NCBI GenBank assembly: GCA_001768735.1
Contig: MEMB01000007.1
Span: forward strand, 106,386 to 170,385
Reading direction: 5' to 3'
From: Alphaproteobacteria bacterium GWF2_58_20
GTDB lineage: Bacteria > Pseudomonadota > Alphaproteobacteria > UBA1247
Length of the DNA: 64,000 nucleotides
The notes beneath the pieces were generated by a model, which saw nothing but the letters and a program-made list of their open reading frames with translations, was not told the DNA's origin and did not search any database. Positions 11,294 to 35,946 of the stretch are shown here, in pieces (position 1 is the first letter of the stretch; each line of letters starts with the position of its first letter). A program made the position numbers and the translations under genes.

Positions 11294-12896
11294 TATCCTG
11301 ATGCAGCCCGATGTTCACGAGGAACGCACCCTGTGGGTGCCCTTGGGGGGCAACAACGAGGACACCATCGGCGGCAACAGCCATGCCATCATTCATGAAT
11401 GGGTGGATGAGAATGGGGAAGGGCATCGTCAGGTTGTTCTGGTGGATGCGGGCAACCTGTTTGGTCGTGGCGGCAAGCATTCCGAATTCCTGCCCGTCCT
11501 GGATCCGTTCCTGACCCGGCGGGAGGATGAAGGCAAGGAATTCTCTCCCACCCATCTCCATGCATCGGCCATTTTCATTACCCATGCCCATGAAGACCAT
11601 ATCGCGGCGCTTCAGCATTACATCAACCGTGGCTTCAAGCTGCCGCCCATTTATTGCAGCAAGCTGACGTCCCAGTATGTGATGGATGACCTTGAAGAAC
11701 TGATTTCCGACCCTGACCAGTGGCCGGAAATCCATGTGATGGAGCCGGGTGAGCGGGTGCAACTTGGAAAATTCACGACACGCGCCGTGCCGGTGAGCCA
11801 TTCCGTATCGCAGTCTTTTGCCTACCAGGTGAAGACACCGGGAAGCAATCTCCTGTTCACGGGGGATTTCAAGATTGACCAGGATTTGCTTCTTGGGCCG
11901 ATGACCGACCTCGGCATGCTTGCGGAAATCGGGCGTGAAGGTGTGGATGCTGTCATGATGGACTCCACCCGGGCCGATGTGCCGGGCTTCACCATGACGG
12001 AACATGCGGTACGGGAAACTTTCCGGCGGATCATGAAGCAAAATCCGGACAAGCGCTTTATCACGGCGGTCATGGGCCGGAATACCGAGCGTGTTGCGGG
12101 GCTGGTGAAGGTGGCAGCGGAAATGGGGCGCCAGATTGTTCATGAGGGGCCTGCGCTCAAGAAGACGCTTTATCTTTGCAAGCGTGCGGGGATTGACCTG
12201 CGGTCGTTGCATCCGGATGTGAAGATCCACGATGGCAAGAGCCAGTTGGCCCGGAAATTGGCCCCCAGCCAGATGGCAGGCATGATTACCGGAACCCAGG
12301 CCGAGATCAATGCCGCTCTTGATCTGGCATCGCGGGGAGATCACCGTCGTCTGCGGCTGGATCCGAAAACCGATATCCTGATCATTTCTGCCTCGCTCAT
12401 TCCCGGTAATGAGGCGCGGGTGCATAAATTGGTTGCCGACTTGCGTGCCCAAGGTTTCATCGTCATTGTGTCCCGGGATGAAGACGTCGCTTCATCCGGC
12501 CATCCGGCGGCAGAGGATTGCAAGCTGACAGCGAAAACCACAAATGCCCGCATGGTCATTCCGGTGCATGGCTCGATTGCACACCGGACGGCCCAGTGCC
12601 GCAACATGGCAGAGATCGGCGTGCCCAGCCTGATGGTGGGGAATGGCAATATTGTGTGTTTCGGAGGGCCGCAAGGCACCCGGATTATCGGGCACCGGCC
12701 GCATGGCCTGATTGGCGTTCAGGAAAAGCGGGTGGGTTACAACAGTCCCGACAAGAATGACCCGAACGCGCCCAAGGTCCAGTATGCCTATGAAATGATC
12801 ATGCAGAAACCGAAGCCTTTGGCCCAGCCAAAACCACCGGCGCCAAAACCGCCACAGCCGCGCTATGCGCCGAAAGACGATCCAGCACTGCTGTGA
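11286..12896 (+). CDS. RNase J-fold metallo-beta-lactamase/beta-CASP nuclease-like protein, paralogue 1, with a Pro/Lys-rich C-terminal tail
   Basis: Motifs VLVDAGN, THAHEDHIAA (HxHxDH), VSHSV..S, FTGDFK.D and MMDSTRADVPGFTMTEHAV. Also SSGHPAAED and IPVHGS, the equivalents of beta-CASP motifs. The N-terminus PLGGNNEDTIGGNSH replaces the canonical LGGLGEIGKN. The tail reads KPKPLAQPKPPAPKPPQPRYAPKDDPALL. Confidence 0.75.
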   Translation: MHDILMQPDVHEERTLWVPLGGNNEDTIGGNSHAIIHEWVDENGEGHRQVVLVDAGNLFGRGGKHSEFLPVLDPFLTRREDEGKEFSPTHLHASAIFITHAHEDHIAALQHYINRGFKLPPIYCSKLTSQYVMDDLEELISDPDQWPEIHVMEPGERVQLGKFTTRAVPVSHSVSQSFAYQVKTPGSNLLFTGDFKIDQDLLLGPMTDLGMLAEIGREGVDAVMMDSTRADVPGFTMTEHAVRETFRRIMKQNPDKRFITAVMGRNTERVAGLVKVAAEMGRQIVHEGPALKKTLYLCKRAGIDLRSLHPDVKIHDGKSQLARKLAPSQMAGMITGTQAEINAALDLASRGDHRRLRLDPKTDILIISASLIPGNEARVHKLVADLRAQGFIVIVSRDEDVASSGHPAAEDCKLTAKTTNARMVIPVHGSIAHRTAQCRNMAEIGVPSLMVGNGNIVCFGGPQGTRIIGHRPHGLIGVQEKRVGYNSPDKNDPNAPKVQYAYEMIMQKPKPLAQPKPPAPKPPQPRYAPKDDPALL

Positions 12897-13012
12897 CGGA
12901 GCCTTGCATTTTTTGCAGGGGTGGTGAATGAAAAGAACATGGCTGTTTGCGGGTTTTTCATGCGAAAATGTTCGTATGGAAGTTCCCTTTTTGTCCGGGA
13001 AAGGCAAAAAAC

Positions 13013-14479
13013 ATGTCGGAATGGATTGCATGGGTTGCGCTCGGCGGGACCAATGACCATGGCATCGGCGGCAACTGCGGCCTTCTCATTCATGGAGATG
13101 ATTCCGGTGCGGCTCCGGAAATCCTCATGGTGGATGATGGCTTCAAGTTCGAGGACGGGCATGGCAAGTCCTACCCGGTTCTGGATGACTTCCTGCCCTA
13201 TATCAAGGGCGTTCTCCTGACCCATTCGCACGGCGACCATATCGGCGGCATTTCGTTGCGCATGCCCCGGACGGAGGTCTATCCGCCCATCTACGGTTCG
13301 CAGATGACCATCAACGTGCTGGAGCACAACATCGAGCGCGAAGTGGATGAACGAATTGTGCGGGGGCTTGCACGCAACGTGGTGGCGCCCAGGGAAAGTT
13401 TCCGGGTTGGCGGGTTCGAGGTTGAGCCCGTGCTGGTCAGTCATTCCTCGGTCGAATCCTATGGCTATCATGTGAAGGTGGCGGGTCGGAGCGTTTTCTT
13501 TACCGGCGATTTCAAGTGGGATCTTGACATGCCGCTGGATAGCTCCACCGATGTGGCGCGCCTCATCGAGATCGGGAATGCGGGACTGGATGTCCTTTTT
13601 CCGGATTCGACGGGTGCCGACAATCCCGGCTTTACGCCCAAGGAATGGGCGGTCGCGGCCGATCTGGAAAAGCTGGTGCGCGACAATCCGCAGGTGACTG
13701 AGTTCATCATGCCCATCGGGGCAACCGCGCATCAGCATATTGCCATGCTGGCGGCTGTGGCCATGAGAACGGGCCTGCCCATCGTTTACGAGGGCAAGGG
13801 GCTTGATAACAGCCTCTTGGACCTGTTTCGTTCGGGGTACGAAATGGAAAAGAAATATCACGGTTGCCGGATTGTTCCGGCAAACAGTGCGCTTGGGCAG
13901 GAAATCATCGGACGGGAAGATCGCCGCCTGTGCCTGGGTACTGGTGCGCAGGGCGAGGAAAATGCCTTTTTCGCAAAGGCGCTGCGAGGCTGCAATTATA
14001 ACCTGCGTCTGGATCCCGTGCAGAGCATGGTGGTCAACCTGTCGGGGGTGATTCCCGGCAACGAGAAAACCGCAGATTTCATTTTTGAAAAATGCCGGGA
14101 GCTGGGGATCCGGCAGGCGTTTGCCAAGGCATCCGGCCACGGGGCGTCGGAGGATTTGCTGTGCATGAGTACGGCGCTGCGCCCGGGAGTTGTCATTCCC
14201 CTGCATGGCGACCGGAAAAAAATCGCGGCCCATGTGGCGTTGCAACAGGCGGCCGGGCACGAGGCTGTCGCAACAATCGGCGGGCAGGTGCTGCTGTGGC
14301 GGGATGGGGCCGTTTTGCCGGAAACCATCGGTTTTGTGGATACGGCGCGGATGATCGCGCGGGAAACCGGGTTTGTGCGCGGCCGCAACATCTACCAGTA
14401 CATGCGCGCGGAAGGCTGGTCGAAACAGCCGGAAAACGCCCACAAAATCACGCTTCCCACATGGGCGCCGAAACCCTGA
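13013..14479 (+). CDS. RNase J-fold metallo-beta-lactamase/beta-CASP nuclease-like protein, paralogue 2
   Basis: Motifs LGGTNDHGIGGNC, LMVDDG, THSHGDHIGG, VSHSS, FTGDFKWD, FPDSTGADNPGFTPKEWAV, ASGHGASEDL and IPLHGD. The protein ends ...TLPTWAPKP. Confidence 0.75.
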   Translation: MSEWIAWVALGGTNDHGIGGNCGLLIHGDDSGAAPEILMVDDGFKFEDGHGKSYPVLDDFLPYIKGVLLTHSHGDHIGGISLRMPRTEVYPPIYGSQMTINVLEHNIEREVDERIVRGLARNVVAPRESFRVGGFEVEPVLVSHSSVESYGYHVKVAGRSVFFTGDFKWDLDMPLDSSTDVARLIEIGNAGLDVLFPDSTGADNPGFTPKEWAVAADLEKLVRDNPQVTEFIMPIGATAHQHIAMLAAVAMRTGLPIVYEGKGLDNSLLDLFRSGYEMEKKYHGCRIVPANSALGQEIIGREDRRLCLGTGAQGEENAFFAKALRGCNYNLRLDPVQSMVVNLSGVIPGNEKTADFIFEKCRELGIRQAFAKASGHGASEDLLCMSTALRPGVVIPLHGDRKKIAAHVALQQAAGHEAVATIGGQVLLWRDGAVLPETIGFVDTARMIARETGFVRGRNIYQYMRAEGWSKQPENAHKITLPTWAPKP

Positions 14480-14596
14480 CCCATGCGCCCCGCGCATGGC
14501 TCCCTTGCGAAATCGGAATACCTCCTGCCCGCCATTATCTGTGATACTGGTTCCGTCAGCATATTTCGACACAAACCCGATGTGAAAGGACATGAC

Positions 14597-16120
14597 ATGA
14601 CCGCACCCTATACCGAATGGGTTTCCCTTGGCGGCAACAATGAAGACGATATTGGCGGAAACTGCCATCTGGTGACATATTTTGATGGCAAACATGCGCA
14701 TTCCATTCTGGTTGATGCCGGCAACAAGTTCAGCAAGGTTCCGGGCTATGACCAGTTCTTTCCCATCCTGCCCAAGGGCGTGAAGGCGACCTTCTGCACC
14801 CATGGCCATCTTGACCATATCGGAGCCACCGCGCACCTGCTCAATCACGGACTTCCGGTTCCGCCGGCCGTTTATGGCAGTTCCATGAGCCTCAATGTCA
14901 TGCGCATCCAGCTGGGCCGCGTTTATGGCAATGAAAATCCTTGGCCGCACCTGCACGACATGGAACCGCGCGAGGCCGTCAATGTCGGCCATATCCGGGT
15001 GGAAGGGGTTTCCGTGAGTCACTCCATTCCGCAGGCTATGGGTTTTTATGTGGTCACGCCCACGGCGCGCCTGCTGTTTACGGGCGATTGCAAATGGGAT
15101 ACCCAGCTGCCCATCAAGCCGGTTACGGATGTCAATGGTCTGCAGCGGATTGGTGATCGCGGTCTTGAAGCCCTGTTCCTTGATTCCACCCGTTGCCAGG
15201 TGCCGGGCTTTACCCGGCCGGAGCAAGACGTGCGTGACGAGATCCGCGCGCAGGTTCTGGCCAATCCGCAGGTGGATGAGTTCATCATGCCGGTCATGAG
15301 CACCTCGGTGCAGCGCATGGCCGTTCTTGCCGAGCTGTCGCAGGAGATGAATATTCCCATTATTTATGAGGGACGTTCGATCGAGGACATGCTGGAAGCG
15401 GCCAAGCGTTCCAAAATCGACCTGAAGAAGATGTATCCCGGTGCGCGTATCATGAATGCCCGCAGTTTTCAGGGGCAGGAGATGATCAAGCAGGGAATCC
15501 GGCATTTCCACATGGGTACTGGCACACAGGGCGAGGAAAATGCCTTTTTTGCCAGGGCCATGCGCGGGGAAAGCCAGAATGTTCGCCTTAATCAGGCAAA
15601 AACCCTGGTCCTGTTCCTGGCTTCTGTCATTCCAGGAAATGAGGCTGCATGTGAACCGCAGTTCGCCAAATTGCGCGAGATGGGAATCCGCTATGTCCTG
15701 ATCCACACATCGGGTCACGGCAGTGCAGAAGATCTCTTGAAATACGGGGAAGTGACAAAACCGCGCGTGCTGTTTCCGGTGCATGGTTCCCGCGCCCACA
15801 TCGATCATCATGCCAGCATCCAGCAGGAAGCGGGCCGCAAGGTGCAGATGGCCATGAATGGTGACCGGTGGCGCTGGGATGGGAAGGGGCAGACCCCTTA
15901 TTATGCCGGCCACATCGACACCAAGGCCCTGGCCTGCAAGGAAATGGGACAGAAATGGGTCACCAACCCCAAGAGCAAGACGGGACAGGAAGTCTTGCGC
16001 AATATCTATGAGTACAAGATTGTAGATAGCTGGGATGCGCCGAAGACGGAAAGCGGCATTGTCCTTCCGGCCAAGAAGAAGATCGTCCTGGCGGGCATGG
16101 AACCTGTGGGGCCGAAATGA
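14597..16120 (+). CDS. RNase J-fold metallo-beta-lactamase/beta-CASP nuclease-like protein, paralogue 3
   Basis: Motifs LGGNNEDDIGGNCH, ILVDAGN, THGHLDHIGA, VSHSIPQ, FTGDCKWD, FLDSTRCQVPGFTRPEQDV, HTSGHGSAEDL and FPVHGS. It shares NPQV.EFIMP with paralogue 2. Confidence 0.75.
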   Translation: MTAPYTEWVSLGGNNEDDIGGNCHLVTYFDGKHAHSILVDAGNKFSKVPGYDQFFPILPKGVKATFCTHGHLDHIGATAHLLNHGLPVPPAVYGSSMSLNVMRIQLGRVYGNENPWPHLHDMEPREAVNVGHIRVEGVSVSHSIPQAMGFYVVTPTARLLFTGDCKWDTQLPIKPVTDVNGLQRIGDRGLEALFLDSTRCQVPGFTRPEQDVRDEIRAQVLANPQVDEFIMPVMSTSVQRMAVLAELSQEMNIPIIYEGRSIEDMLEAAKRSKIDLKKMYPGARIMNARSFQGQEMIKQGIRHFHMGTGTQGEENAFFARAMRGESQNVRLNQAKTLVLFLASVIPGNEAACEPQFAKLREMGIRYVLIHTSGHGSAEDLLKYGEVTKPRVLFPVHGSRAHIDHHASIQQEAGRKVQMAMNGDRWRWDGKGQTPYYAGHIDTKALACKEMGQKWVTNPKSKTGQEVLRNIYEYKIVDSWDAPKTESGIVLPAKKKIVLAGMEPVGPK

Positions 16121-16515
16121 CCAGCCTGAAGACGGTTTTGGAGAAACTTGTTGCTGGTGGGGGGCGCAAGCTGCCCCCTGCCAGCGATGCCGGCCTGACC
16201 TCGGCGGAAATGACGCTGGCCGCCCTTGGTGCGCCGGGCCTTCCGCCCGATTTCGTGGCGTTTCTGCGGGTGTCGGATGGTGCCGTTTACCACCATATCC
16301 GCTTTTTTGGCACGGCAGATATTGCCATGGCGCAGGAGGATATGTTCCGGAGTCGTCGGCCGCCGCATTTCCTTGGCCTTGGCCAGGCAGATGACGATGT
16401 ATATGCCTTTGATGCCCGCGATGGCGCCTACAAGATTCTCGACCCCACCGATTGTGAGGATTTTGGCACATTTGCAAGTTTTGCCGAATTGATGGACGAC
16501 GCTGTCGGGGAATGA
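16117..16515 (+). CDS. SMI1/KNR4 (SUKH-superfamily) immunity-type protein
   Basis: 132 aa. Contains LTSAEMTLAALGAPGLPPDFVAFLRVSDGAVY...FFG...........LGLGQADDDVYAFD, which resembles the SUKH-1 pattern (LP.DY..FL...NG). The ATGA overlap with paralogue 3 lies at 16117-16120. Confidence 0.55.
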   Translation: MTSLKTVLEKLVAGGGRKLPPASDAGLTSAEMTLAALGAPGLPPDFVAFLRVSDGAVYHHIRFFGTADIAMAQEDMFRSRRPPHFLGLGQADDDVYAFDARDGAYKILDPTDCEDFGTFASFAELMDDAVGE

Positions 16516-17582: not shown

Positions 17583-17586
17583 GGGA

Positions 17587-22858: not shown

Positions 22859-23155
22859 GGCAACCCTCCGGAGTAAGTGTATGGATGCAACATTGAAACA
22901 TGGGCATCTTAGCTTCCCTTTAAGGGAAAATCAATGGTTCATCTTGAGCTGCGTCCTCATGGTTCCCTCCCGGAATGTCTTGGCGGGCCTTGTGAGTTCC
23001 ATGTTGACCGGCCATGCCCCATGAGGTAAAACAGAAGGGATCCGGAATCTGTCCCTTTTTTAGGCGGGTGCTGGTTTCATGGTTTTGTGCGGAATGTCCG
23101 GGAGGAATGCCGGGTGGTTGAACAGTCTGAAAAAGTGCAGGAAAAATCAGGGGAG

Positions 23156-25577: not shown

Positions 25578-26863
25578 TTGATCAGATGCCAGAGATGGGA
25601 GGCCCGGAGGGCGGTCCCGAGGATTTTGAGGGAATCGCCCCCCCGGTGTCGCAGGGGTTTGTTGCCCGCCAGAATCTTTCCGAAGCCTGGAAAACGCGTC
25701 CGATGTTCCGGCTTTTGGTCATCGTGATGCCGGTTGTCGCTGTGGCGGCCATCGCCATGGGGATGTTCGGCGGCAATAACGATGTGTCTGCACCTTTGCC
25801 AACACAAGGCTTGCGGACATCGGATATTTCGCTCAATCCGGCCATTCCGACAACGCCTGAGGTGAAGCAATCGGTTGAGCAATATGACGCCCAGAAAATC
25901 GACCAGGCCCTGGCAACAGGAACCAGTGCGATTGCCACGCCGATGCGTTCAGACCAGATGGGAAATTCCTCAATCATGGTTGAGGATTCTGCCGCTGATC
26001 CGTTGGCGGAATGGCGCGGAGCTTCGGACATGTCGGTTGATTACATGACCCAGACCATGATTGAAGACCAGCGTTCTGCCCGTCCACAGCAGGTGGATAC
26101 CGAGGCGCAACAGCGCCGCCAGCAGGAAAATGACCGTTTGTCGCAGGCCATGCAGGCACAGATGAATGCTCTGCTGTCGGCCTGGGTGCCCAAGGGCGCC
26201 AAGGTGACAATGGTTGAGGACATGAAAAAGGCCGAGGATGCTGCGGCCGCTGCGGCAGCCGCACAGCAGCAGGCGTCTGCGGCTCCGGCCACCATTGATT
26301 CCAGCAAGCTCAACACGCTGGCCATGGCGGGGGATGTGGTTTATGCGCAGATCCTGACCCAAGCCAATTCCGATGTTCCGGGTCCTGTTCTTGCCCATAT
26401 CCTGACGGGAAAGTTCAAAGGCGCACGGGTTCTCGGCAATTTTGAATACACGGAGGAATACCTTGTGGTGCGCTTTACCACAGCCGTCCTTGGAAACCGG
26501 GAATACAAGATCGAGGCGGTGGCCCTGGATCCCGACACGACACTGACGGGTGTTGCGACGGATGTGGACAATCATTACTTCAAGCGGATTGTCCTGCCGG
26601 CCGCAGGCGCTTTCATCAGCGGGTTTGCCAGTGCACGCGCACAGACGACAACCACCAGCACCACGACATCTGGTGGCCAGGTTGTGCAGGATACAGCCAA
26701 AGCCACGGATGAAGAACAGGTTTACAAGGGAATTGAAAGTGCCGCCGACAAGGTCCAGGAAGTTCTGGACAAGGCGGGAGATGTGCGTCCCACGGTTGTC
26801 CTGGCGGCCAATACGCCGGTGGGCATCCTGTTCATGCAGTCTGTCCGGGAGATCATGAAATGA
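25574..26863 (+). CDS. dotG: DotG/IcmE (TraO)-family T4BSS core protein with a VirB10/TrbI-like C-terminal domain
   Basis: N-terminal TM segment FRLLVIVMPVVAVAAIAMGMF. C-terminal domain GDVVYAQILTQANSDVPGPVLAHILTGKFKGARVLGNF......LVVRFT.......EYKIEAVALDPDT...GVATDVDNHYF.R. It has ATGA overlaps on both sides. Confidence 0.8.
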   Translation: MIDQMPEMGGPEGGPEDFEGIAPPVSQGFVARQNLSEAWKTRPMFRLLVIVMPVVAVAAIAMGMFGGNNDVSAPLPTQGLRTSDISLNPAIPTTPEVKQSVEQYDAQKIDQALATGTSAIATPMRSDQMGNSSIMVEDSAADPLAEWRGASDMSVDYMTQTMIEDQRSARPQQVDTEAQQRRQQENDRLSQAMQAQMNALLSAWVPKGAKVTMVEDMKKAEDAAAAAAAAQQQASAAPATIDSSKLNTLAMAGDVVYAQILTQANSDVPGPVLAHILTGKFKGARVLGNFEYTEEYLVVRFTTAVLGNREYKIEAVALDPDTTLTGVATDVDNHYFKRIVLPAAGAFISGFASARAQTTTTSTTTSGGQVVQDTAKATDEEQVYKGIESAADKVQEVLDKAGDVRPTVVLAANTPVGILFMQSVREIMK

Positions 26864-27888
26864 TCAAGGAAACGGAATACACAGGGGGCGCGCCCCTTTC
26901 TGATGACATGGAAGACGATGGGATGGCCGGAGAGGCCCGTCCTGTGCTTTCAGATGAAACCCTTGATTCCCTGCCGGAAGAAGGCGAAGGGCTTCAGGTT
27001 CCGCCTCCGGATGAGGACGAGGAAGATTTTGGAACAGCGGAGCCGGTGGTGAAATCCAGCCGCATGCTGCCCCTTATGGTTGGGGGTGGTTTCCTGGTTT
27101 TTGCCATGGCAATGGCCTATTTCCAGTTCCGTCCCAAAGCGGTTGAGGAAACAGCTTTTGTCCCGATGGACATGTCGGCCGAGATGCCGATGGCCCTGCC
27201 GGAAGTGGTGGTGCCCGGATCCATGGAGAATGATTTCCCGAAACCGTTTGAGGTTTCGCAGATGGGGATGGGAGATGCCGGGATCCCGGCGATTTTGTCC
27301 GAGCCGCAGGGTCTGGACGCAAAAGCGCCTGTTGTGGCCATGGCCGCATTTCCTGCTCCGGTGGACAATGTAAAGCCCATGACCATTGATCAGACGCCTG
27401 TCAGGGAAGAGGAATCCCTGTCGGACGCCGTGGAAGGCAAGGTTGTTGTTCTGGAAGCGCAGATAAAGGCGCTTGAAGCCCGTCTGACAGAGATGTCCGC
27501 TTTGCAGGCGCAGATTCGCAATCTTGAAAGGAAGCTGATGGACATGTCGGTTTCTGAAACCGCACCCGCGCCCATGGTTTCGTCCATGCCGGTTGCCAAG
27601 GTTGTGGAAACGCCGAAGGCGGAACCTGCCAAGGCCATGCCCGTTGCAAAAGCGGAGCCTGCGGTAAAGCCCGTGTCCGCCCCTCCGGCAAAAAAAGTGG
27701 TGAAAGCCCCGAAATGGGAACTGCGCTCGGTTGCAGGGGATGCTGCCTGGGTTGGCGAGGCCGGGAAAGCGGATGTCAAGCGCGTAATCGTTGGTGACAC
27801 CCTTGAAGGTCTTGGGAAAATCACGGCCATTCACAAGGTGGACGGGGGTTGGGTGGTTGAAGGCAGCAGGGGAACTCTTAAACCGTAA
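26860..27888 (+). CDS. dotF: DotF/IcmG (TraP)-like T4BSS protein
   Basis: Acidic N-terminus, a single TM segment (MLPLMVGGGFLVFAMAMAYF) and a coiled-coil (LEAQIKALEARLTEMSALQAQIRNLERKL). The C-terminal beta-domain reads WELRSV.GDAAWV......DVKRVIVGDTLEGLGKITAI. It occupies the conserved position after dotG. Confidence 0.6.
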   Translation: MIKETEYTGGAPLSDDMEDDGMAGEARPVLSDETLDSLPEEGEGLQVPPPDEDEEDFGTAEPVVKSSRMLPLMVGGGFLVFAMAMAYFQFRPKAVEETAFVPMDMSAEMPMALPEVVVPGSMENDFPKPFEVSQMGMGDAGIPAILSEPQGLDAKAPVVAMAAFPAPVDNVKPMTIDQTPVREEESLSDAVEGKVVVLEAQIKALEARLTEMSALQAQIRNLERKLMDMSVSETAPAPMVSSMPVAKVVETPKAEPAKAMPVAKAEPAVKPVSAPPAKKVVKAPKWELRSVAGDAAWVGEAGKADVKRVIVGDTLEGLGKITAIHKVDGGWVVEGSRGTLKP

Positions 27889-28053
27889 GGGTTTCAGGAT
27901 GGAGGATCATCCAAAACGCCTTTTTTACTTGACGTTTTTGCTTTGGTTGCACATATTCGCGCCAAAGGAATGTTTCGCTTGGAAAGATTGAACCAGAATA
28001 TGCCGGGGAAGGGACATCATCACATTCTTGCGCAGCCTGAGATCGGGCTGCGC

Positions 28054-28956
28054 ATGTTTTCGTGCGCCTTTTTCCTGTTGGCTGTCCTTCTGGCGCTGCC
28101 ATCCCCGGCCTATGCGCTGGATGTTGGGGGCATCATTTCCAATGCTGGAAACCTTGCAATTTCTTCGCCTGTTCGTATTTTCATTCACGTTGTCGCTTAT
28201 GTCGTTGGGGCCTCCCTCATTTTTCTTGGCATGTTCAAGCTGGTCAAATATGTGGATGACCCGGCGCGCAACCATCCGGTTGAGCCATGGATGTACCTCA
28301 TTTCCGGTACGCTGCTCATTTTCTTTGTCTGGTTTGTTTACCAGCGGTTGGTTCCCACCCTGTTTTCGGGGGATCTTAAAGGGGTTGGTTCTGGCGGCGG
28401 CATGGCCGGTGGATCGGGCGAGGGGCTGGATGCCCGTTTCATCAGTTTTGTGTCGAATGTTGATGGTCCCCTGCGGGCGGCCATTACAGCCATTTGCTGG
28501 CTGATTGGCGTGATCATGGCGTTTAATGGCGTGGTGCGCCTCACCAAGGTTTCGCAGAAAGGGCCCAAGGGCCCTGCGGGTGCTGGTACGCTGATGACCT
28601 TCATTGTGGCTGCCATCATGCTCAGCCTCGGCAACATGATGGAAGCCGTGAGCTTCAGCGTTCTCGGCGGCGTGGATTTCAGCACCAGTTATGAGCTGGT
28701 CGCCATTCCCAAGGCGCTTGGAAAGCATGGCGAAGCGGCGAAGAATGCCTTCCAGGCCGCGCTGGTTTTTGTCCAGCTCATCGGCTGGATTGCTTTTGCG
28801 CGCGGATGGCTGCTCATCCGCGACATTGTGGACGGAACATCGAAATCCTCGATGTTGTCGGGCTTTACCCATGTCATTGGGGGTGCGCTGGCGGCCAATA
28901 TTGGCAGCGTGCTCAAGGCCCTTCAGGCAACATTGGGCATCACCATCATCTCGTAA
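28054..28956 (+). CDS. DotE/IcmC (TraQ)-like polytopic inner-membrane protein, enlarged (about 300 aa)
   Basis: Signal-like N-terminus MFSCAFFLLAVLLALPSPAYA. Three successive TM-hairpin modules each resemble IcmD. It occupies the position between dotF and icmD. The start is uncertain (in-frame starts at 27943 and 28000). Confidence 0.5.
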   Translation: MFSCAFFLLAVLLALPSPAYALDVGGIISNAGNLAISSPVRIFIHVVAYVVGASLIFLGMFKLVKYVDDPARNHPVEPWMYLISGTLLIFFVWFVYQRLVPTLFSGDLKGVGSGGGMAGGSGEGLDARFISFVSNVDGPLRAAITAICWLIGVIMAFNGVVRLTKVSQKGPKGPAGAGTLMTFIVAAIMLSLGNMMEAVSFSVLGGVDFSTSYELVAIPKALGKHGEAAKNAFQAALVFVQLIGWIAFARGWLLIRDIVDGTSKSSMLSGFTHVIGGALAANIGSVLKALQATLGITIIS

Positions 28957-28994
28957 AAAAGATGATGTTTTTTATCTCAAGGTAACCAGAATTA

Positions 28995-29375
28995 ATGGAG
29001 TTGAACATGAACAAGCTGAATGAAAAGTTTTACGGCATCCTGGCGGCCGGTTCCGCCACGGTTTTCACCAGCAAGTCGGCTTCCGCCGCCACGATTGGTG
29101 ACATCATTGAAAGCCTGACGGACAGCTTCCGTCCGGCGGCCACCCTCATTTCCGTGGTCTGCTATCTGGGCGGCGCCGCGCTGGTGGCGCAGGGCCTGCT
29201 GAAGCTGAAGAACCACATTGATCAGCCGGAGAAGGCGCCGCTGAAGGATGCTCTTGGCCGCCTCATCGTGGGTGCGGGCCTCATTGCCATCCCCTTCATC
29301 GTCGAGGCTGTGCTGGAAAGCATGGGCGGTACTCAGGGCGGTAACGTCACCGGTGGCGATGGTTTCGGCCTTTAA
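28995..29375 (+). CDS. icmD: IcmD/DotP (TraR)-like small T4BSS membrane protein
   Basis: Signal/TM segment ...GILAAGSATVFTSKSASA, then ATLISVVCYLGGAALVAQGLLKLKNH...LIVGAGLIAIPFIV. Size and position are as expected. Confidence 0.65.
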   Translation: MELNMNKLNEKFYGILAAGSATVFTSKSASAATIGDIIESLTDSFRPAATLISVVCYLGGAALVAQGLLKLKNHIDQPEKAPLKDALGRLIVGAGLIAIPFIVEAVLESMGGTQGGNVTGGDGFGL

Positions 29376-29394
29376 TCAAAGAAGCTGATACCTG

Positions 29395-30093
29395 ATGTCT
29401 CTCTTTCCGGTTGTTTTGGGTGTGCGCCGTGAGGTGAAGGGAAAGCCCGGTGAAGCTTTCCCCGCCTCTGGCCTTGACGCCTCCAGTCCCGAGCTGCGTG
29501 CCCGGGTGCTGGAGCGTGATGGAAACACATGCCAGTTTTGCGGATTTACGTCGAAAAAATACCAGAATCTGGTATTCCGCAATGGCAATGCCCTGGATAC
29601 CCGGATGGAAAATCTCGCGACGGCCTGCATTTTCTGTCACCAGTGTTTCTTTCTGGAAACGGTGGCGGGCATGCGGTCGGGCGTTCTTGTCTGGTTGCCG
29701 GAAATGGATGCGGCGGCGCTTCACCACGTTTGCCGCGCCATTTATATTGCCCGGATCAGCCAGGGGCCGGTGGCCGATGCCGCCCGCATTGCCCTTGATG
29801 CGCTGATTTCGCGGCGTGATGAGGCGCGCAAGCGCCTTGGCACGGACGATCCGGCCATTCTGGCTGGTGTCCTGCAGGATTTCCTGGAGGACAAGGATTA
29901 TGCGATGCGCAGTCGCAAGCTGGACGGTATCCGGCTTTTGCCGCTGGATCGGCGCATCATCCGTGACGGGGACATGGAGTTCAACCAGTTTCCCCAAATT
30001 CTTGCTTACTGGCGTTCCAAGGATGGGCCATTTGGCGGCGTGCCGCCGGCCGGATGGGAACAGCTTTTTGATCAGGTTTCATCCCTGGCCTGA
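29395..30093 (+). CDS. icmJ: IcmJ/DotN (TraT)-like zinc-binding T4BSS protein
   Basis: Four-Cys motif RVLERDGNTCQFCGF......LVFRNGNALDTRMENLATACIFCHQC. It lies immediately upstream of dotO, as in Dot/Icm and IncI loci. Confidence 0.65.
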   Translation: MSLFPVVLGVRREVKGKPGEAFPASGLDASSPELRARVLERDGNTCQFCGFTSKKYQNLVFRNGNALDTRMENLATACIFCHQCFFLETVAGMRSGVLVWLPEMDAAALHHVCRAIYIARISQGPVADAARIALDALISRRDEARKRLGTDDPAILAGVLQDFLEDKDYAMRSRKLDGIRLLPLDRRIIRDGDMEFNQFPQILAYWRSKDGPFGGVPPAGWEQLFDQVSSLA

Positions 30094-30153
30094 TTGCTGG
30101 GGAGAAGGCCCGCATGTGCGGTAGGTTGAAGGAAAAAGAGGGAGAGGATTTTT

Positions 30154-33138
30154 ATGGCCAGGTTGATTGATGATATCCTCGGGTCCTTTTTTGCTGCCAT
30201 GCATCAGCCGGTCGAATCCTATGTCCGTCTTGAAACGGCGGATGACAGCCAGACCCTTGTTGCGGGAGATGGCTCGCTCCTGACCATTCTCAAGATCCAT
30301 GGGGCCCGCCAGATCATTGGCGACGAGGAATATCGCTTTATTGTGGAGCAGGCTTCGGTGAAGCTGGGGGCACGGTTTGACCGCCCCGGCCATGCCATGC
30401 AGGTGTATTTCAGCCGCGATCCTGAACGCATGGTCAGGGAAATCGGCGACATGGTGCGGCCCAGCGAACTGACGTCGCGGGCCATTGGGCTTGATCTTGC
30501 CGACCTCTTCGAGGAGCGCCGTCGCAACCTGTCGCGCTACCTCGCGTGGGAGGATATTTATTTCGTCCTGTGGACCCGCCCCGTGGCCATGACGGATGTG
30601 GAACGCAAGAATGAGGAACAGAAGCGCCGTGCCCGTCCATGGGTGGTGGCGCCCACCGCCCAGTACCCCTTTGCGGCGCTTGAATCGCTGCGGAGCCGGC
30701 ACGGCAGTTATGTCTCCTCCATTGCGAGCTCTCTTGAGGAAATCGGTATCCAGTCCAGTGTTGTTGAAGTGCATGAGGCCCTTTCTGCCGTCCGCACCAG
30801 CATCTATCCCAATCTGGCCAATGATCGCTGGCGTCCCTGCCTGCCGGGCGATCCGATACCTGTGCGCGCGCTACAGAGCAGAAGTGACCTGTCCGATGTG
30901 CTGTGGCCTGCCCTGCGCCGCCAGTTGTGTGTGGGGGATGCCGAGGTCAAGACCCAGAATTCCGTGCGAATCGGCAACCAGATCTGGTCGGGCGTGGACA
31001 TGACTCTGGCTCCCATGGAACCCAGCCCGTTTCCGGTGTTTCTGGGCCGGTTGGTGGAAGCCGGAATTCCGTTCCGCATTTCCTTCCTGATTGAGGCGGG
31101 GGGCGCTTCGGCTCTCGGGTTCAAGAAGGCTGTTGCCTCCATTTTGGGCTTCAGCAATGACGTGAACAAGCAGATCAAGGATTCGCTGGAAGGGATTGAA
31201 GCCCTGGCCCGTGATGAAGCCGTGGTCAAGTTGCGGATTTCCATGGCGACATGGGCGCCTCCGGACCAGCCAAAACTTCTGGAGGAACGCACATCCATGC
31301 TGGTGCAGGCCTTTGAAGGCTGGGGCTATTGCCAGGTATCACAGATTGCGGGCGACCCGCTGGATTGCGTGATGTCTTCGGCGCTCGGCATTGCCTGTGC
31401 CTCCACGGCACCTGCGGCCATTGCGCCTTTTTACGATGTTCTCAAGCTGTTGCCGTGGCAGCGGGCATCCAGCCCGTTTGACAAGGGATCGGTTCTCCTG
31501 CGCTCGCCGGACGGACGTGTGTGGCCCTATCAAACCGGGACGAATCTTACCACCACCTGGTTCGACCTGATTTTCGCCCAGCCGGGTGCAGGCAAGTCGG
31601 TGCTGATGAATGCGCTGAACCTTGGCACCTGCCTTACGCCAGGGCTTTCCCAGTTGCCTTATGTGGCCATTATCGACATTGGTCCGTCATCTGCGGGGCT
31701 TGTGTCCCTTCTCAAGGATGCCATGCCGCCGGAACGCCGCCATGAAGTGGCGCATTACCGTCTGCGCATGACGCCGGAATATGCCATCAACCCGTTTGAT
31801 ACCCAGCTGGGGTCGCGCTATCCACTGCCCGATGAGCGTTCCTATCTTGTGGAACTCCTCACCCTGTTGTGTACGCCGCCAGGACAGCCGGTGCCTTATG
31901 ATGGCATTCCCCAGCTCTGCGGGCTGGTGGTGGATGAAATGTTCCGCTGGCGGGATGATGTGACCGCAAATGCCGAGGCGCATCCCTACCTGCAGCGGAT
32001 TGATGAAGAAGTGGACAAGGCCATTTCCGACCGCAATATTCACCTGCCGACGGAAGCGACATGGTGGGATGTGGTGGATGGCCTGTTTGAGGCCGGGGAT
32101 ACGCATGCGGCCATGCTGGCGCAGCGTTATGCGGTTCCGACATTGACCGATGCCGTGACGGCTTCGCGTCGGCCGCAGATCCGGGCGCTTCTGGAAGAGA
32201 CCAAGATCAGCGCCGGTGCGGAAAGCGTCATTGGCGCGTTTGAGCGCATGATTGCCTCCAGCATTCGTGAGTTTGCGCTGCTGGCCTCCGTCACCAAGTT
32301 TGATATTGGTGATGCCCGCGTGTGTGCGCTCGACCTTGGCGAAGTGGCTCCGCAGGGGGATGAAACATCGGATCGCCAGACGGCCATCCTCTACATGCTG
32401 GCGCGCCATGCGCTGGTGCGGCATTGGTGGCTGGGCGAAGATGCCCTCAAAAACCTCAATCCGAAATACCGCGAACATCATGAACTCCGCCTGCGATCAA
32501 TCCGCGAATCGCCCAAGCGCCTGTGTTATGATGAGTTCCATCGCACCAGCAAATCGCGCTCGGTGCGCGCCCAGGTGGTGCGTGACGTGCGCGAAGGCCG
32601 CAAGTGGGGCGTGCAAATTGTTCTTGCCTCGCAGCTGCTGGAAGATTTTGACGACAACATGATTGACCTTGCCACAGGCGTGTGGATTCTGGGTGCGGCC
32701 ATTTCCGAGCGTTCGGTGGATCAGGCCGCCAAGCGGTTTGGCCTGTCCGACACGGCACGCTGGTACATGCGTTATCGCCTTACCGGGCCGCGTTCCAGCG
32801 GGGCGCCTGCGCTCATGGTGCTGGGCACCAATGAGGGGCGTTATGAGCAGTTCCTCATCAACACCCTTGGCCCCATCGAGCTGTGGGCGCTTTCGACATC
32901 CTCCGAGGATGTTTCCATCCGGACACGCGTTTACCATCGTTTGGGCGCCAAGCTGGGGCGTGAAATCCTGGCCACCAACTATCCGGGGGGCAGTGCGCGC
33001 AGTGAAATTCGCCGTCGCGTCACCCAGCTTTCTGAAAAGGGTGAAGTGGAAAGCGCCGCCACGTCGGTGGTGATCGAGGATATTGTGAACGAGCTGGTGC
33101 AAGCGGCGGTGGCCGCGCAGAGATTGCAGTTGTCCTGA
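30154..33138 (+). CDS. dotO: DotO/IcmB (TraU) T4BSS VirB4-class ATPase
   Basis: 994 aa. Walker A in IFAQPGAGKSVLMNAL. Walker B-like region in LCYDEFHRTS...GRKWGVQIVLASQ. Size and position are typical of DotO. Confidence 0.85.
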   Translation: MARLIDDILGSFFAAMHQPVESYVRLETADDSQTLVAGDGSLLTILKIHGARQIIGDEEYRFIVEQASVKLGARFDRPGHAMQVYFSRDPERMVREIGDMVRPSELTSRAIGLDLADLFEERRRNLSRYLAWEDIYFVLWTRPVAMTDVERKNEEQKRRARPWVVAPTAQYPFAALESLRSRHGSYVSSIASSLEEIGIQSSVVEVHEALSAVRTSIYPNLANDRWRPCLPGDPIPVRALQSRSDLSDVLWPALRRQLCVGDAEVKTQNSVRIGNQIWSGVDMTLAPMEPSPFPVFLGRLVEAGIPFRISFLIEAGGASALGFKKAVASILGFSNDVNKQIKDSLEGIEALARDEAVVKLRISMATWAPPDQPKLLEERTSMLVQAFEGWGYCQVSQIAGDPLDCVMSSALGIACASTAPAAIAPFYDVLKLLPWQRASSPFDKGSVLLRSPDGRVWPYQTGTNLTTTWFDLIFAQPGAGKSVLMNALNLGTCLTPGLSQLPYVAIIDIGPSSAGLVSLLKDAMPPERRHEVAHYRLRMTPEYAINPFDTQLGSRYPLPDERSYLVELLTLLCTPPGQPVPYDGIPQLCGLVVDEMFRWRDDVTANAEAHPYLQRIDEEVDKAISDRNIHLPTEATWWDVVDGLFEAGDTHAAMLAQRYAVPTLTDAVTASRRPQIRALLEETKISAGAESVIGAFERMIASSIREFALLASVTKFDIGDARVCALDLGEVAPQGDETSDRQTAILYMLARHALVRHWWLGEDALKNLNPKYREHHELRLRSIRESPKRLCYDEFHRTSKSRSVRAQVVRDVREGRKWGVQIVLASQLLEDFDDNMIDLATGVWILGAAISERSVDQAAKRFGLSDTARWYMRYRLTGPRSSGAPALMVLGTNEGRYEQFLINTLGPIELWALSTSSEDVSIRTRVYHRLGAKLGREILATNYPGGSARSEIRRRVTQLSEKGEVESAATSVVIEDIVNELVQAAVAAQRLQLS

Positions 33139-33195: not shown

Positions 33196-33320
33196 CTGGA
33201 AGGGCTTATGTGGGGATCAGTCTTGTTCGATTTTTTTGGCACCATCGGGGGCCGCGGCACGGCTGTCATCCAACAGGGGGAATAGGTTGTGGTTCCAGGG
33301 ATATTTCCCGGCTTTCCAAG

Positions 33321-34331
33321 TCAGGGAGCGGGTTTTGGCGCGGGCAGGGCGGGAGTCGGATGTTTACCATGGCGCGGCAGGCGTACAGGCAAGCCGGCGG
33401 CTTTCTGATTCATGGCGTAGGCCAGGGATTGTTGGAGTCTGGTTGCACGCGTCCGGGTTTTCGGGTGGTTTTGGGCGTGTTTGTGCAGTTTTTTCTGGGC
33501 CAGGTACACGGTTTTTTTCCACGTCTCATCCGTTGTGGTGGCGGCAACCTGTTCCAGGATGATGTTGCAAATATCCAAGCGTGCTTCTGTCGGTTTCTGC
33601 ATATAGTGACGCATGGCAAGATGGAAGGTGCCTTCATTGGTGGCGGCACCATGCCCGGTCAGAAACGCGGCATGTTCGGCATCTCCATCCCGGATGGTGT
33701 AATTCAGGAGGGGAATGTCGCCAACCAATGTGTTGTCGCAAATGTTTGGGTTCAAACCGTTTTCAATCAGGATGCGGGCGATTTTCTTGTTTTTAATAAT
33801 GACTTTTGTGTTCTCTGACGTGCGATAAAAATTATATGTCGATTGCACGCCTTCTGAATGGATCAAACGTTCGATTTCAAAGCTGTCTTCAGCTTGAATG
33901 GCGGAGGCAAGCTTGGTTTGCTGGTTGCACAGTCTGCCCAGGAAGGCGAGATTCGTGATGCAGGTGATGAGCAGAACCCATGGCGCTGTTGAGAGGGTGG
34001 CAAGGCTTGCGGCCCCCATGGCCCAAAATCCGCACCAGGCCAAGTTGCGGGTCTTGGTCAGGTAGGCGTGGCCCTTCCATGTTGTCCGCGCCGTGTCCTG
34101 GGCCTGTGTGCGCTTGATATCTTCCTGCTGGATGAAACTTTGCAAGACCTGTGCCGCATGGGTTTTTTCATCGGTTTCGGAATCCACATTGTAAAGCCAT
34201 GCCTGTTTTTTCAGGGTTTGGCCGTGCATCTCGAAGCTTTTGCGCGCGACAATTTCCTGGTCTGGCAGGAGATCTTCCTCATATGGTTCAGCCGGAATAT
34301 GTGACGGATGCCTGAATTGGGTTTCTGTCAT
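33321..34331 (-). CDS. Membrane-hairpin ankyrin-repeat protein, paralogue 1 (candidate T4BSS effector)
   Basis: Two adjacent TM helices (LAWCGFWAMGAASLATL / PWVLLITCITNLAFLG) are followed by ANK-like repeats (ILIENGLNPN..D......PLLNYTIRDGDAEHAAFLTGHGAATN). The C-terminal tail reads LPVRLPRHGKHPTPALPAPKPAP. The internal stretch is visibly A/T-rich. Confidence 0.6.
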   Translation of the reverse strand: MTETQFRHPSHIPAEPYEEDLLPDQEIVARKSFEMHGQTLKKQAWLYNVDSETDEKTHAAQVLQSFIQQEDIKRTQAQDTARTTWKGHAYLTKTRNLAWCGFWAMGAASLATLSTAPWVLLITCITNLAFLGRLCNQQTKLASAIQAEDSFEIERLIHSEGVQSTYNFYRTSENTKVIIKNKKIARILIENGLNPNICDNTLVGDIPLLNYTIRDGDAEHAAFLTGHGAATNEGTFHLAMRHYMQKPTEARLDICNIILEQVAATTTDETWKKTVYLAQKKLHKHAQNHPKTRTRATRLQQSLAYAMNQKAAGLPVRLPRHGKHPTPALPAPKPAP

Positions 34332-34348
34332 GGGAATCCCTTATCTTC

Positions 34349-35353
34349 TTAAGGTTGTTTTGGCTGTGGGGCTGGCAGCTGGCGCGGCAGCCGCACAGGC
34401 AGTTTTGCCGCCCGCTGGCTCATGGCCTGCATGAGCCGTTTCCGGATATCCGGCAGGAAGGGATGGTCCTTCATGTCCGCCAGCGTTCTCTCCATGAGAC
34501 GCATTTCCCGCCGCCATCCTTCATGGGATGCCTGGCTGCCGGCCTGTTCCAGCAGCATGCCAAGAATGTCGAAAAAGGGTTTGCGGGCTGCATCGGGATT
34601 CTTGCTCTTCTGCAGTTCGGTGACAAGCTGGCCGAGATCCGATCCGGTGGTGCTGAAAAGGCCGACCGTGGCCCCATGGTGCAGCAGCATGGCCACGCGG
34701 TCGCTATCCAGATCCTTCATCGCTGTTTGGAGGGGATTGAGGCGATGTCTGAAAACACTGCGGACGTTTGGGTTGAAACCATTCTCCAGCAGGAGTTTTG
34801 CGATTTTGTTGTCGGTCTCCTTGAAGGCGCCCGGCATGGGGTTTTCCACGGCGACCACCGGGCCAAACGCGCCATGTACGGGACAATTCGGGTTGACGCC
34901 TTCGGCCAGCAGGCGGCGGATTTCAAACTCCTCCCGGTTTTCCACGGCTTCGGCCAGCAAAGATTCCTGGCAGAGATGCTTGAAGAACAGGGCCGCGTTG
35001 GCGATGGCCGCCACGCCGGCCAGCCATGGCATGACCGGCAACATCGCAATGCCAGCCCCCCCGACGGCAAAAAAACCGGCCCAGGCCAATCTGCGGACGC
35101 GGCGGGCGCGGGTTTTATCGCCCCACCCCTGTTCCAGCCGTGTTTCCTCCTGCCGCAGGATGTTGTCCATGACCTGCCGGGTGCTGGTGGCCTCGTCCGC
35201 ATCGGGGGAGACAGCATACATATCCGGGTTCTCCCGGATGAATTGCTCCATGAAGCGCAGGCTTTTGCGTGCCGCCAGCTCCTTGTGGGAAGGCATCTCG
35301 TCTTCGGCTTGCTCTTGCGGGAGACATGGCGGTTGTTTGAATTCCGTGGTCAT
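34349..35353 (-). CDS. Membrane-hairpin ankyrin-repeat protein, paralogue 2 (candidate T4BSS effector)
   Basis: Same architecture: TM helices LAWAGFFAVGGAGIAML / PWLAGVAAIANAALFF and ANK-like LLLENGFNPN......LNPLQTAMKDLDSDRVAMLLHHGATV. The tail reads KLPVRLPRQLPAPQPKQP. The start was set at MTTEFKQPP, parallel to MTETQFRHPS of paralogue 1. This gives an ATGA overlap with the upstream gene. Confidence 0.6.
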   Translation of the reverse strand: MTTEFKQPPCLPQEQAEDEMPSHKELAARKSLRFMEQFIRENPDMYAVSPDADEATSTRQVMDNILRQEETRLEQGWGDKTRARRVRRLAWAGFFAVGGAGIAMLPVMPWLAGVAAIANAALFFKHLCQESLLAEAVENREEFEIRRLLAEGVNPNCPVHGAFGPVVAVENPMPGAFKETDNKIAKLLLENGFNPNVRSVFRHRLNPLQTAMKDLDSDRVAMLLHHGATVGLFSTTGSDLGQLVTELQKSKNPDAARKPFFDILGMLLEQAGSQASHEGWRREMRLMERTLADMKDHPFLPDIRKRLMQAMSQRAAKLPVRLPRQLPAPQPKQP

Positions 35354-35946
35354 GGCATGTCTGTCCTGGAAAAAGGTGAGGGCTTGGGGGCGGTTTTGCG
35401 GAGCTTCTGGATCCATGGTGCGGGTTCGAGGCCAAGCCTTTTTTCGCGTTGTCTGGCTTCGTTGAGGAGGCGGAAAGCCCTTTCATCCCACGAGGCCTTG
35501 TTGAAAAGCAGGTTTTCACCAAGTTCTTCATAAAGGCCGGAAAAATCGGCGTTCGGATCCTGGCTTGTGAAGGCGTTATTGACATCGATGATGACGGGAT
35601 TCCTGGCATGAAAGAAGTTGGCCCAGATTTTCGGCTGGACAGGGAAAGGGCAATGGGCAGGGTCGATCACCAAGGGCACAATGCGCCCGTCGGGCCATGT
35701 CGTCATCAGGCACGGGGCGACATGGAGGTTGAATTCCATGGTTTCATTCCCCTCATGTTTTTTGATCAGCCAAGCTTGCCGCGTGTCGATGCCCTGCTCC
35801 ACCATTTGTATGCTTTTTACATGGGCGCGACAGTCGCAGCAGGTGTTTGTCACGCCCAGGGCCAGCTCTTCGCTGCGGGCGAAATACTCGAACCATGCAA
35901 CGGCTTCCGCGGGTGTCACGGTTTTTCTGGGAGTGGATGCCTGCAT
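35350..35946 (-). CDS. Protein-glutaminase-like (papain/transglutaminase-fold Cys-His-Asp) protein, paralogue 1; candidate glutamine deamidase effector
   Basis: CCDCRAH ... LHVAPCL ... LVIDPA has the spacing and context of the protein-glutamine glutaminase triad. My recollection of the Chryseobacterium enzyme is DGCYARAH ... YHVAILV ... IIDPS. The tail contains TAPKPSP. Confidence 0.55.
   Translation of the reverse strand: MQASTPRKTVTPAEAVAWFEYFARSEELALGVTNTCCDCRAHVKSIQMVEQGIDTRQAWLIKKHEGNETMEFNLHVAPCLMTTWPDGRIVPLVIDPAHCPFPVQPKIWANFFHARNPVIIDVNNAFTSQDPNADFSGLYEELGENLLFNKASWDERAFRLLNEARQREKRLGLEPAPWIQKLRKTAPKPSPFSRTDMP

Follow-up and report, generated by a model that had tools for sequence, protein, structure and literature searches.

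The window analyzed here, a 64,000-nucleotide stretch of Alphaproteobacteria bacterium GWF2_58_20 (contig MEMB01000007.1, positions 106,386 to 170,385 of the forward strand), contains a secretion system of type IVB (T4BSS) and of the Dot/Icm kind and nine accessory proteins whose Pro-rich and mostly basic C-terminal tails are the subject of this work. The nine are two HNH nucleases, three RNase J-like proteins (RNJ1–3), two ankyrin proteins (Ank1 and Ank2) and two protein-glutaminase-like deamidases (Gln1 and Gln2). Genes were called with a codon-usage model trained on open reading frames (ORFs) that had family hits. The window starts with an Lcl_C protein and an amidase, followed by T4BSS module 1, the two HNH genes, the three tandem RNase J-like genes and a small acidic gene; next come flgL and flgK, which lie on the opposite strand, then T4BSS module 2 and the minus-strand genes Ank1, Ank2, Gln1 and Gln2, and the remainder is a housekeeping set including pntAB, ubiD, asnS, htpX and rsmB. 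The tail bearers flank both T4BSS modules. In a related T4BSS locus (L151), a TcpQ-like gene directly abuts flgL-flgK, and the HNH-RNJ block of the window (9793-16515), which separates these genes, is therefore an insertion at the edge of a secretion module.

Module 1 (5658-9612, + strand) encodes DotD (5658-6200), DotC/TraI (6139-6981), the DotB ATPase (6960-8117), IcmT (8121-8396) and a TcpQ-domain protein (8452-9612), with Pfam matches to T4SS_TraI (2e-77), T2SSE (6e-37) and TcpQ (6e-20), and with DotD and IcmT_2 taken from precomputed gene calls. Module 2 (23087-33138, + strand) encodes two DotI proteins (23087-24477), DotH (24474-25577), DotG/TrbI (25574-26863), four small or membrane proteins and a DotO-like ATPase (30154-33138); here the Pfam matches were DotI_IcmL (3e-35) and DotH_IcmK (2e-75), and TrbI came from the precomputed calls. 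A Pfam scan of the DotO-like ATPase itself (994 aa) gave no match. Homologues that share 60-69% identity with this protein were found in 142 stretches of GTDB species genomes, and it was assigned to DotO because of this identity to homologues in 80 T4BSS loci of Micavibrio-like metagenome-assembled genomes (MAGs), the loci listed among the 142 stretches. Thus, the core components DotB, DotC, DotD, DotG, DotH, DotI and DotO were all present.

The tails themselves were as follows. Among the proteins downstream of module 1, all encoded on the + strand, HNH nuclease 1 (9793-10344; Pfam HNH 2.2e-4) ends ...IYIPPVLPALDNIPDSLRLKLR, which is Pro-rich and not basic, and HNH nuclease 2 (10535-11029; Pfam HNH 1.2e-4) ends ...QPWKQPGWNPNAPLPVPPSSCWG, with its Pro-rich part at 10988-11026 and 7 Pro within the last 25 residues. 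RNJ1 (11286-12896; 536 aa in the public call) has a Pro/Lys tail at 12807-12893 (...KPKPLAQPKPPAPKPPQPRYAPKDDPALL), RNJ2 (13010-14479) ends ...HKITLPTWAPKP (...TLPTWAPKP; tail at 14450-14476) with Pro as the last residue, and RNJ3 (14594-16120) has a weaker tail, ...DAPKTESGIVLPAKKKIVLAGMEPVGPK (16034-16117). Downstream of module 2, on the minus strand, Ank1 (33321-34331) consists of a unique N-terminus, a hydrophobic hairpin-like stretch, degenerate ankyrin repeats and the tail LPVRLPRHGKHPTPALPAPKPAP (33324-33392), and its paralog Ank2 (34349-35353; 334 aa in the public call) carries the tail LPVRLPRQLPAPQPKQP (34352-34402). Gln1 (35350-35946; Pfam Gln_deamidase_2 1.6e-7) has the tail ...KLRKTAPKPSPFSRTDMP at 35353-35397, where translation confirmed the C-terminus ...KTAPKPSPFSRTDMP, and Gln2 (35946-36521; Pfam Gln_deamidase_2 9.8e-18) has a basic tail, ...RIRKEKSLALVPMPNMTGTP, with a Pro-rich end at 35949-35981. 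A sequence-only reading of this DNA, which had proposed that a recurrent APKP-like tail marks T4BSS cargo, gave ...PPSS as the end of HNH-2, and translation gives NAPLPVPPSSCWG instead; all other C-termini and coordinates that it quoted were reproduced by translation of the named ORFs.

We found that the tails set the accessory proteins apart from the rest of the window. Ordered by the number of Pro among their 25 C-terminal residues, the 59 window proteins had RNJ1, Ank1, HNH2, Gln1, Ank2 and RNJ2 in the first six places, and none of the window's housekeeping proteins ends in this way. The nine accessory proteins had on average 6.2 Pro in the last 30 residues versus 1.6 in the other 50 proteins (Mann-Whitney p = 1.4e-6), and a mean net charge of +3.2 versus +0.6 (p = 0.01). 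Net charges ranged from +2 to +7 in the seven tails of the RNJ, Ank and Gln proteins, and the two HNH tails, at -1, were Pro-rich but not basic. The last residue was Pro in 5 of 9 accessory proteins, as compared with 6 of 50 other window proteins and 6% of 1,155 proteins from related loci. A terminal Pro, or a P-x-P-COOH end, is a sharper feature than the APKP word. APKP occurred four times in the 19,773 residues of window proteins, where about 0.3 occurrences were expected, and every time within the last 18 residues of a protein. A motif-blind test was run on 53 tails, and asked for any 4-mer common to at least 3 families; such a 4-mer appeared in 11% of random internal 20-mer draws and in 6% of shuffles that retained the composition of each tail. 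The exact word, whether written APKP or [AL]P.PKP, was thus only marginal as a signal (motif-blind p of about 0.06-0.11), and because APKP was insignificant once composition was allowed for, the strict motif was given up in favor of a compositional description. The five proteins from three unrelated families described by the sequence-only reading do have the tails, and their independence was overstated: the three RNJ tails align with one another and Ank1 and Ank2 are paralogs, which leaves three to four independent events, namely RNJ, Ank, Gln and, for Pro only, HNH. A shared DNA element as the source of the tails was also considered and discarded, as APKP is encoded by different codons from gene to gene and the tails of separate families have no repeat that connects them.

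Several features pointed to selection on the tails. The overall identity of Ank1 and Ank2 is 35%, as against 57-76% over the last two alignment windows (AA.LPVRLPR...LPAP.P..P) and 76% over the last aligned tail columns, so that no part of the pair is better conserved than the tail. KP near the C-terminus is a conserved alignment column in an Ank-like family found in other genomes, whose members show 22-25% pairwise identity. Terminal Pro is enriched about 6-9-fold. As Hayes, Bose and Sauer reportedly found in 2002, a C-terminal Pro slows translation termination and provokes tmRNA tagging in E. coli; at such a cost, enrichment of terminal Pro is unlikely to be neutral.

The bearers themselves appear, by sequence comparison, to be lineage-specific orphans or very divergent proteins. 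RNJ1-3 match Pfam Lactamase_B_2 and RNase_J_b_CASP, and the HxHxDH motif is kept in all three (THAHEDHI, THSHGDHI and THGHLDHI align), as in a metallo-beta-lactamase plus beta-CASP core. The AlphaFold2 (AF2) model of RNJ1 had a predicted local distance difference test score (pLDDT) above 85 in the core, roughly residues 90-460, which matched RNase J structures in Foldseek (TMq 0.75), and a pLDDT of 28-39 over the last 63 residues including the whole Pro/Lys tract; the RNJ1 tail is therefore predicted to be disordered. RNase_J_C (PF17770), which most of the listed database homologs of RNJ1 have, gave no Pfam match in RNJ1-3, and the RNJ1 residues corresponding to this domain were predicted to be disordered in the AF2 model. 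The nearest database relatives of RNJ1 were ordinary RNase J proteins, at most about 33% identical. Its two best matches (P0003 and P0004, 802 and 805 aa) consist of an ordinary RNase J with an internal duplication of about 250 residues and look like assembly artefacts rather than a distinct family. Pfam Ank matches of Ank1 and Ank2 were below threshold; a joint Ank1+Ank2 profile matched multi-repeat proteins over columns 135-285, which suggests that their ankyrin repeats are real but degenerate. Gln1 and Gln2 match PF18626, and Gln2 also matches the protein-glutaminase structure 2ksv in PDB (1.8e-4). No relatives of Ank1 or Gln1 were detected among 5.8 billion proteins by word-indexed search, two very large protein libraries contained no full-length relatives of Ank1 or Ank2, and a full HMMER search with the Ank1+Ank2 profile returned generic ankyrin-repeat proteins only. 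In addition, tblastn of the nine accessory proteins and the neighboring SUKH-like protein against 160 related loci revealed no homologs within 10 kb of DotO or DotB. Judged by their N-terminal sequences, none of the nine has a signal-peptide-like hydrophobic start. The possibility of an anti-phage defence island was rejected, as PADLOC had no match for the HNH, RNJ, SUKH-like and Gln proteins; the sole defence-model match among the nine was a weak one of Ank2 to PDC-M72A (8e-5).

The small acidic protein that follows RNJ3 (16117-16515, + strand) has its ATG overlapping the RNJ3 stop codon (ATGA). Its Pfam match to SMI1_KNR4 (SUKH) was below cut-off (E = 0.022), a PDB sequence search gave no meaningful match and an AF2 single-sequence model was unusable (pLDDT 41), so that we call it, weakly, a possible immunity protein of the SUKH/SMI1-KNR4 type. 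If this likeness is real, RNJ3 might tentatively be viewed as a toxin with the acidic protein as its cognate immunity protein. Perfect GC-rich palindromes, probably hairpins, are located just past the stop codons of HNH1 (GCATGGGCCCATGC, 10352-10365) and RNJ2 (CCATGCGCCCCGCGCATGG, 14481-14499). A shared upstream regulatory palindrome was also sought and dismissed, since just these isolated hairpins and no recurrent site were found.

We then asked of the related loci whether non-homologous T4BSS neighbors have similar ends. In five of them (L041, L047, L058, L079 and L082), DotO is followed by islands of accessory proteins, including ankyrin-repeat proteins (Pfam Ank_2, to 2e-33), DUF6782 putative metallopeptidases, the Ank-like family mentioned above, a 713-aa family with weak Ank matches and an Smr protein; judged by their N-termini, none of the island proteins has a signal-peptide-like start. 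Typical ends were ...LKLKPSKPGP, ...STPKPRPPAP, ...AAPKPNGPKP, ...LPAPPKPAS and ...RSVRIGLKGP. When a minimum of 2 Pro together with a net charge of +2 or more over the 12 C-terminal residues was taken as the tail signature, it was found in 21 of 35 island proteins, compared with 0.9% of T4BSS core proteins, 1.7% of other conserved families and 3.5% of rare or singleton families in the 80 related loci. Terminal Pro was present in 13 of 35 island proteins versus 6% elsewhere (p = 8e-8). A P-x-P-COOH end was carried by 9 of 44 accessory and island proteins as opposed to 5 of 1,205 others, and by 2 of 758 proteins of an independent metagenome set. Besides, a composition model trained on the nine window tails alone separated island families elsewhere, with an area under the curve of 0.90. 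It was also considered whether Ank1 and Ank2 are homologous to the Ank-like island family, and this was left unsupported by hhalign (probability 22%).

A second shared element was observed at the other end of some island proteins. The motif [QD]DFN.[AS]A occurs in the first 40 residues of 9 of 35 island proteins versus 4 of 1,214 others, its bearers (L041:561-1616, L041:17570-19711, L047:594-1661, L047:15316-17457, L058:505-1455, L058:14382-15233, L079:495-1544, L079:14586-15458 and L082:18757-19737) span three families (the DUF6782 peptidase, the 713-aa family and ankyrin-repeat proteins), and it could be a second targeting element. The motif is absent from the proteins of the window.

Of the systems to which this locus can be compared, Dot/Icm of Legionella and Coxiella belongs to the same machine family (the window encodes DotB, C, D, G, H, I, O and IcmT), and there too the signal resides in the last 20-30 disordered residues of proteins lacking a Sec signal, as is proposed here. 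In contrast to the acidic E-block, with DotM as its reader, and the IcmSW-dependent classes known there, the window tails are basic and Pro-rich; no IcmS or IcmW was seen, and the host is a relative of bacterial predators among the Alphaproteobacteria and not an intracellular pathogen of the Legionellales. Substrates of VirB/D4-type systems (T4ASS) offer a likeness in charge, since a net-positive unstructured C-terminus is found in both, and the seven basic window tails and the low pLDDT (<50) of the RNJ1 tail fit this pattern. The Agrobacterium C-terminal signal is reportedly Arg-rich, according to Vergunst et al. in 2005. The machine here is type IVB and not IVA, Lys and Pro dominate rather than Arg, and VirB/D4 substrates have not been described as often ending in Pro or P-x-P-COOH. 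A close comparison, also alphaproteobacterial, is Rickettsia RalF, which has a Pro-rich region and a basic terminal stretch bound by the coupling protein RvhD4 (PMC4546372). The kib system of Pseudomonas putida IsoF is a bacteria-killing T4BSS, whose effector lacks Legionella-type signals and adjoins an immunity gene inside the secretion region; it demonstrates that a T4BSS can inject toxins into bacteria and that effectors need not bear Legionella-type signals (PMC9519443). The window nucleases likewise adjoin a T4BSS, with a possible SUKH-like partner, although the immunity assignment is weak here. The two differ in that the kib effector has a Gln-rich C-terminus and the window tails are Pro/Lys-rich, and in that kib is a recently acquired island whereas the window system lies on the chromosome and is shared, as a conserved system, by about 140 related genomes.

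Four related genomes provided a view of the protein that might read such a signal. A DotM homolog (Pfam DotM_C 5.6e-46) lies directly after DotO in these genomes (L028:13062-14225, L048:13106-14353, L066:9321-10535 and L068:13100-14338). These four homologs, all from related Micavibrio-like genomes, were aligned to Legionella DotM (PDB 6sz9), in which Arg patches bind acidic E-block peptides (PMC5802825). Relative to Legionella, the loop with R196/R197 is deleted, R217 is replaced by K/C/G/G and R315 by E/A/V/A, and R314 alone is kept; that is, four of the five E-block-binding Arg are lost. The nine window tails contain no E-block: Glu occurs 0-2 times among the last 30 residues, and nothing resembling EExxE is present. 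By this alignment, the Arg losses would fit a non-acidic signal in the Micavibrio-like group, in line with the suggestion of the authors of the Legionella study that DotM may co-evolve with other kinds of tails elsewhere (PMC5802825).

The organism is the background to any reading of these tails. The 80 listed DotO loci are labeled as MAGs of Micavibrio, Alphaproteobacteria, Rhodospirillales/Rhodospirillaceae, Pseudomonadota or Bdellovibrionales/Pseudobdellovibrionaceae, the last label owing to the legacy NCBI placement of Micavibrio. MAG GCA_003485165.1 (contig DNAY01000012.1) also contains the window sequence, as do a JGI metagenome and an ENA scaffold of 498,845 bp. A dcw cell-division cluster lies upstream of the window, so that the T4BSS, with housekeeping genes on its other side, is chromosomal; no relaxase family was matched by Pfam among the window proteins scanned, and a plasmid origin was rejected, since megablast of the 25-kb region against PLSDB gave no match. 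Micavibrio preys on bacteria as an epibiont, and by kinship the window organism presumably does so as well. A Dot/Icm-like T4BSS is conserved in about 140 Micavibrio-like genomes and has apparently gone unreported there: titles and abstracts from full-text literature searches on Micavibrio and type IV/IVB secretion contained no report of a Dot/Icm-type system, and the genome paper of M. aeruginosavorus ARL-13 stated that evidence of a type III or IV system was absent (PMC3189940). In the window, enzymes with the look of toxins or effectors flank this system.

Taken with the concentration of the tails on orphans beside the T4BSS and their recurrence elsewhere, these observations suggest, circumstantially, that the tails are a lineage-specific C-terminal T4BSS export signal, or part of one, a reading that is the best supported of those considered and to which we assign a probability of about 0.4. 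The proposal of the sequence-only reading, that a new flavor of signal marks cargo, is partly supported by the same concentration and recurrence; its specific motif and the independence of its examples are not. We infer from these features that the bearers are cargo, that the T4BSS recognizes them and that they act in a target cell. On this reading, the tails would be intrinsically disordered, Pro-rich, net-positive extensions on the cargo of a chromosomal Dot/Icm-like T4BSS, each protruding from a folded domain and often ending in Pro or P-x-P-COOH. A DotL/DotM-type coupling complex, encoded elsewhere in the genome, would capture the tail and feed the protein into the channel, in a mode like that of the positively charged C-terminal VirB/D4-type signals and unlike the way in which Legionella DotM reads the acidic E-block. 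After delivery, nucleic acids of the target cell might be cut by the RNase J-like and HNH nucleases, the protein-glutaminase-like enzymes might deamidate its proteins, and the ankyrin proteins, via their hydrophobic hairpin-like stretch, might act at membranes.

A number of observations weigh against the export-signal reading. Adjacency to secretion genes is weak evidence of cargo. Similar ends were found on proteins that are not candidate cargo: YidC of the Micavibrio-like group, a housekeeping inner-membrane protein, ends ...SKPKPKKKKKK and scores as high as candidate cargo tails, near the top of the composition model; Pro-rich C-terminal extensions of DotO also rank near the top; a conserved DotC tail (...IP[KR]S..W..APR) passes a loose tail criterion; and MraZ of the window genome ends ...TIPGKAPQTEP. 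Composition alone therefore does not single out cargo. In the comparison with other genomes, the island families were picked after the tails had been seen, and since the five island genomes form one clade, they add about one further lineage and not five. In the other 75 related loci, T4BSS neighbors were housekeeping genes without tail enrichment, and 58 DotB-centered metagenome loci, many of them from other lineages with a different downstream gene order, had neither accessory islands nor tail enrichment. Compared with the island tails, those of the window also have more Pro and less basic character at their extreme end, and the two sets may therefore not be one signal. As for the reader, no DotL or DotM homologue was found among the window proteins scanned, and the DotM homolog domain stays net positive, so that an acidic docking surface was not revealed.

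Two of these ends deserve separate description. The long Ala/Pro-rich DotO extensions (e.g., ...APEAPPPPAPPPPPPPPAAPAKAAS) are present in several genomes (L081:9965-13054, L010:9974-13039, L058:9995-13030 and L079:9989-13051, among others), and the window DotO is without one. Among the DotC homologs in L086-L136, those of one clade share the tail ...GPSxLIP[KR]SxxWxxAPR; the equivalent end of the window's dotC (6139-6981) overlaps the start of dotB. Two more orphans of the window genome, 30-40 kb from the T4BSS, end ...SQPKAPKNAPAAPKKHHQANLG and ...QKPAKPKDNIHFTDAKKQYEVPVPGK. These proteins of 187 and 830 aa (L166:9354-9917 and L166:3913-6405; window 63566 onward, + strand, past the window end) have no Pfam match and no signal peptide, and fit either scattered effectors or a general habit of orphan genes.

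Such a habit is at the center of an explanation that we consider rather doubtful, in which the tails are functionless, disordered low-complexity ends of fast-evolving orphans in a lineage of about 58% G+C, and their clustering near the T4BSS reflects sites of orphan insertion. It would account for the fact that all bearers are orphans or very divergent, that the two orphans just outside the window and 30-40 kb from the T4BSS end similarly (...PKAPKNAPAAPKK..., ...QKPAKPK...), that DotO itself gained Pro-rich extensions in several genomes and that the exact motif is not significant. It is less easily reconciled with a signature present in just 3.5% of the rare or singleton families of the 80 related loci, with an Ank tail that is the most conserved part of the paralog pair, with the KP column conserved in the Ank-like family of other genomes, and with the enrichment of a terminal residue said to be costly in E. 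coli. Pure chance, arising from Ala/Pro/Lys-containing ends in a mid-G+C genome, is consistent with the motif-blind 4-mer result, yet the compositional enrichment is very strong and recurs in other genomes, and chance, being largely excluded for composition, is very unlikely to explain it.

It is also conceivable, if unlikely, that the tails act in the target cell, by binding nucleic acid, acidic membranes or proline-recognition domains, or by aiding passage across the prey membrane, in which case they would resemble cationic Pro-rich peptides. This role is compatible with an export signal and does not exclude it. Three of the four window families are enzymes acting on polyanions or proteins, and YidC of the same group bears a Pro/Lys tail with a non-secretory role; the YidC tail binds ribosomes. 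In Rickettsia RalF, the Pro-rich tract binds host cytoskeleton and a separate basic terminal stretch binds the coupling protein (PMC4546372). On the other hand, one binding function is hard to square with bearers as different as a nuclease, a deamidase, a peptidase and an ankyrin protein, and the strong preference for Pro at the last residue suggests that a free C-terminus is recognized, as would be more in keeping with a sorting signal. A signal for some pathway other than the T4BSS (type I secretion, vesicle sorting or a protease degron, for example) appears improbable. We know of no type I signal that is Pro-rich or basic; Pfam scans revealed no RTX or Ca-binding repeat domains in the bearers, and type I genes are not adjacent to them, whereas two T4BSS modules are. 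Nevertheless, the C-terminal position is shared by type I signals, and type I systems are found in Micavibrio (PMC3189940).

C-terminal signals of type IV secretion systems are known as such; a basic Pro-rich tail, often ending in Pro, was not described for a type IVB system in the literature searched, and would be new. If real, it would bring a basic Pro-rich flavor to the signals of type IVB systems, so far mainly known in the form of acidic E-blocks, and would provide a concrete case of DotM co-evolution with different tails (PMC5802825). If the tails are mere orphan low complexity, the gain is smaller, and the catalogue of T4BSS-linked islands is still useful. A wider interpretation, which we offer as speculative and rather on the unlikely side, is that the conserved chromosomal T4BSS is the injection device of Micavibrio-like epibiotic predators, and that a basic polyproline tail, as a rule with Pro or P-x-P-COOH at its end, is the undescribed class of export signal by which RNase J-derived and HNH nucleases, protein deamidases, peptidases and ankyrin proteins are delivered into prey or host. 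Were this so, the tail would predict the whole effector repertoire of an uncultured group from sequence, and a tag marking T4BSS cargo would yield a testable list of candidate effectors for how epibiotic predators kill and drain their prey.

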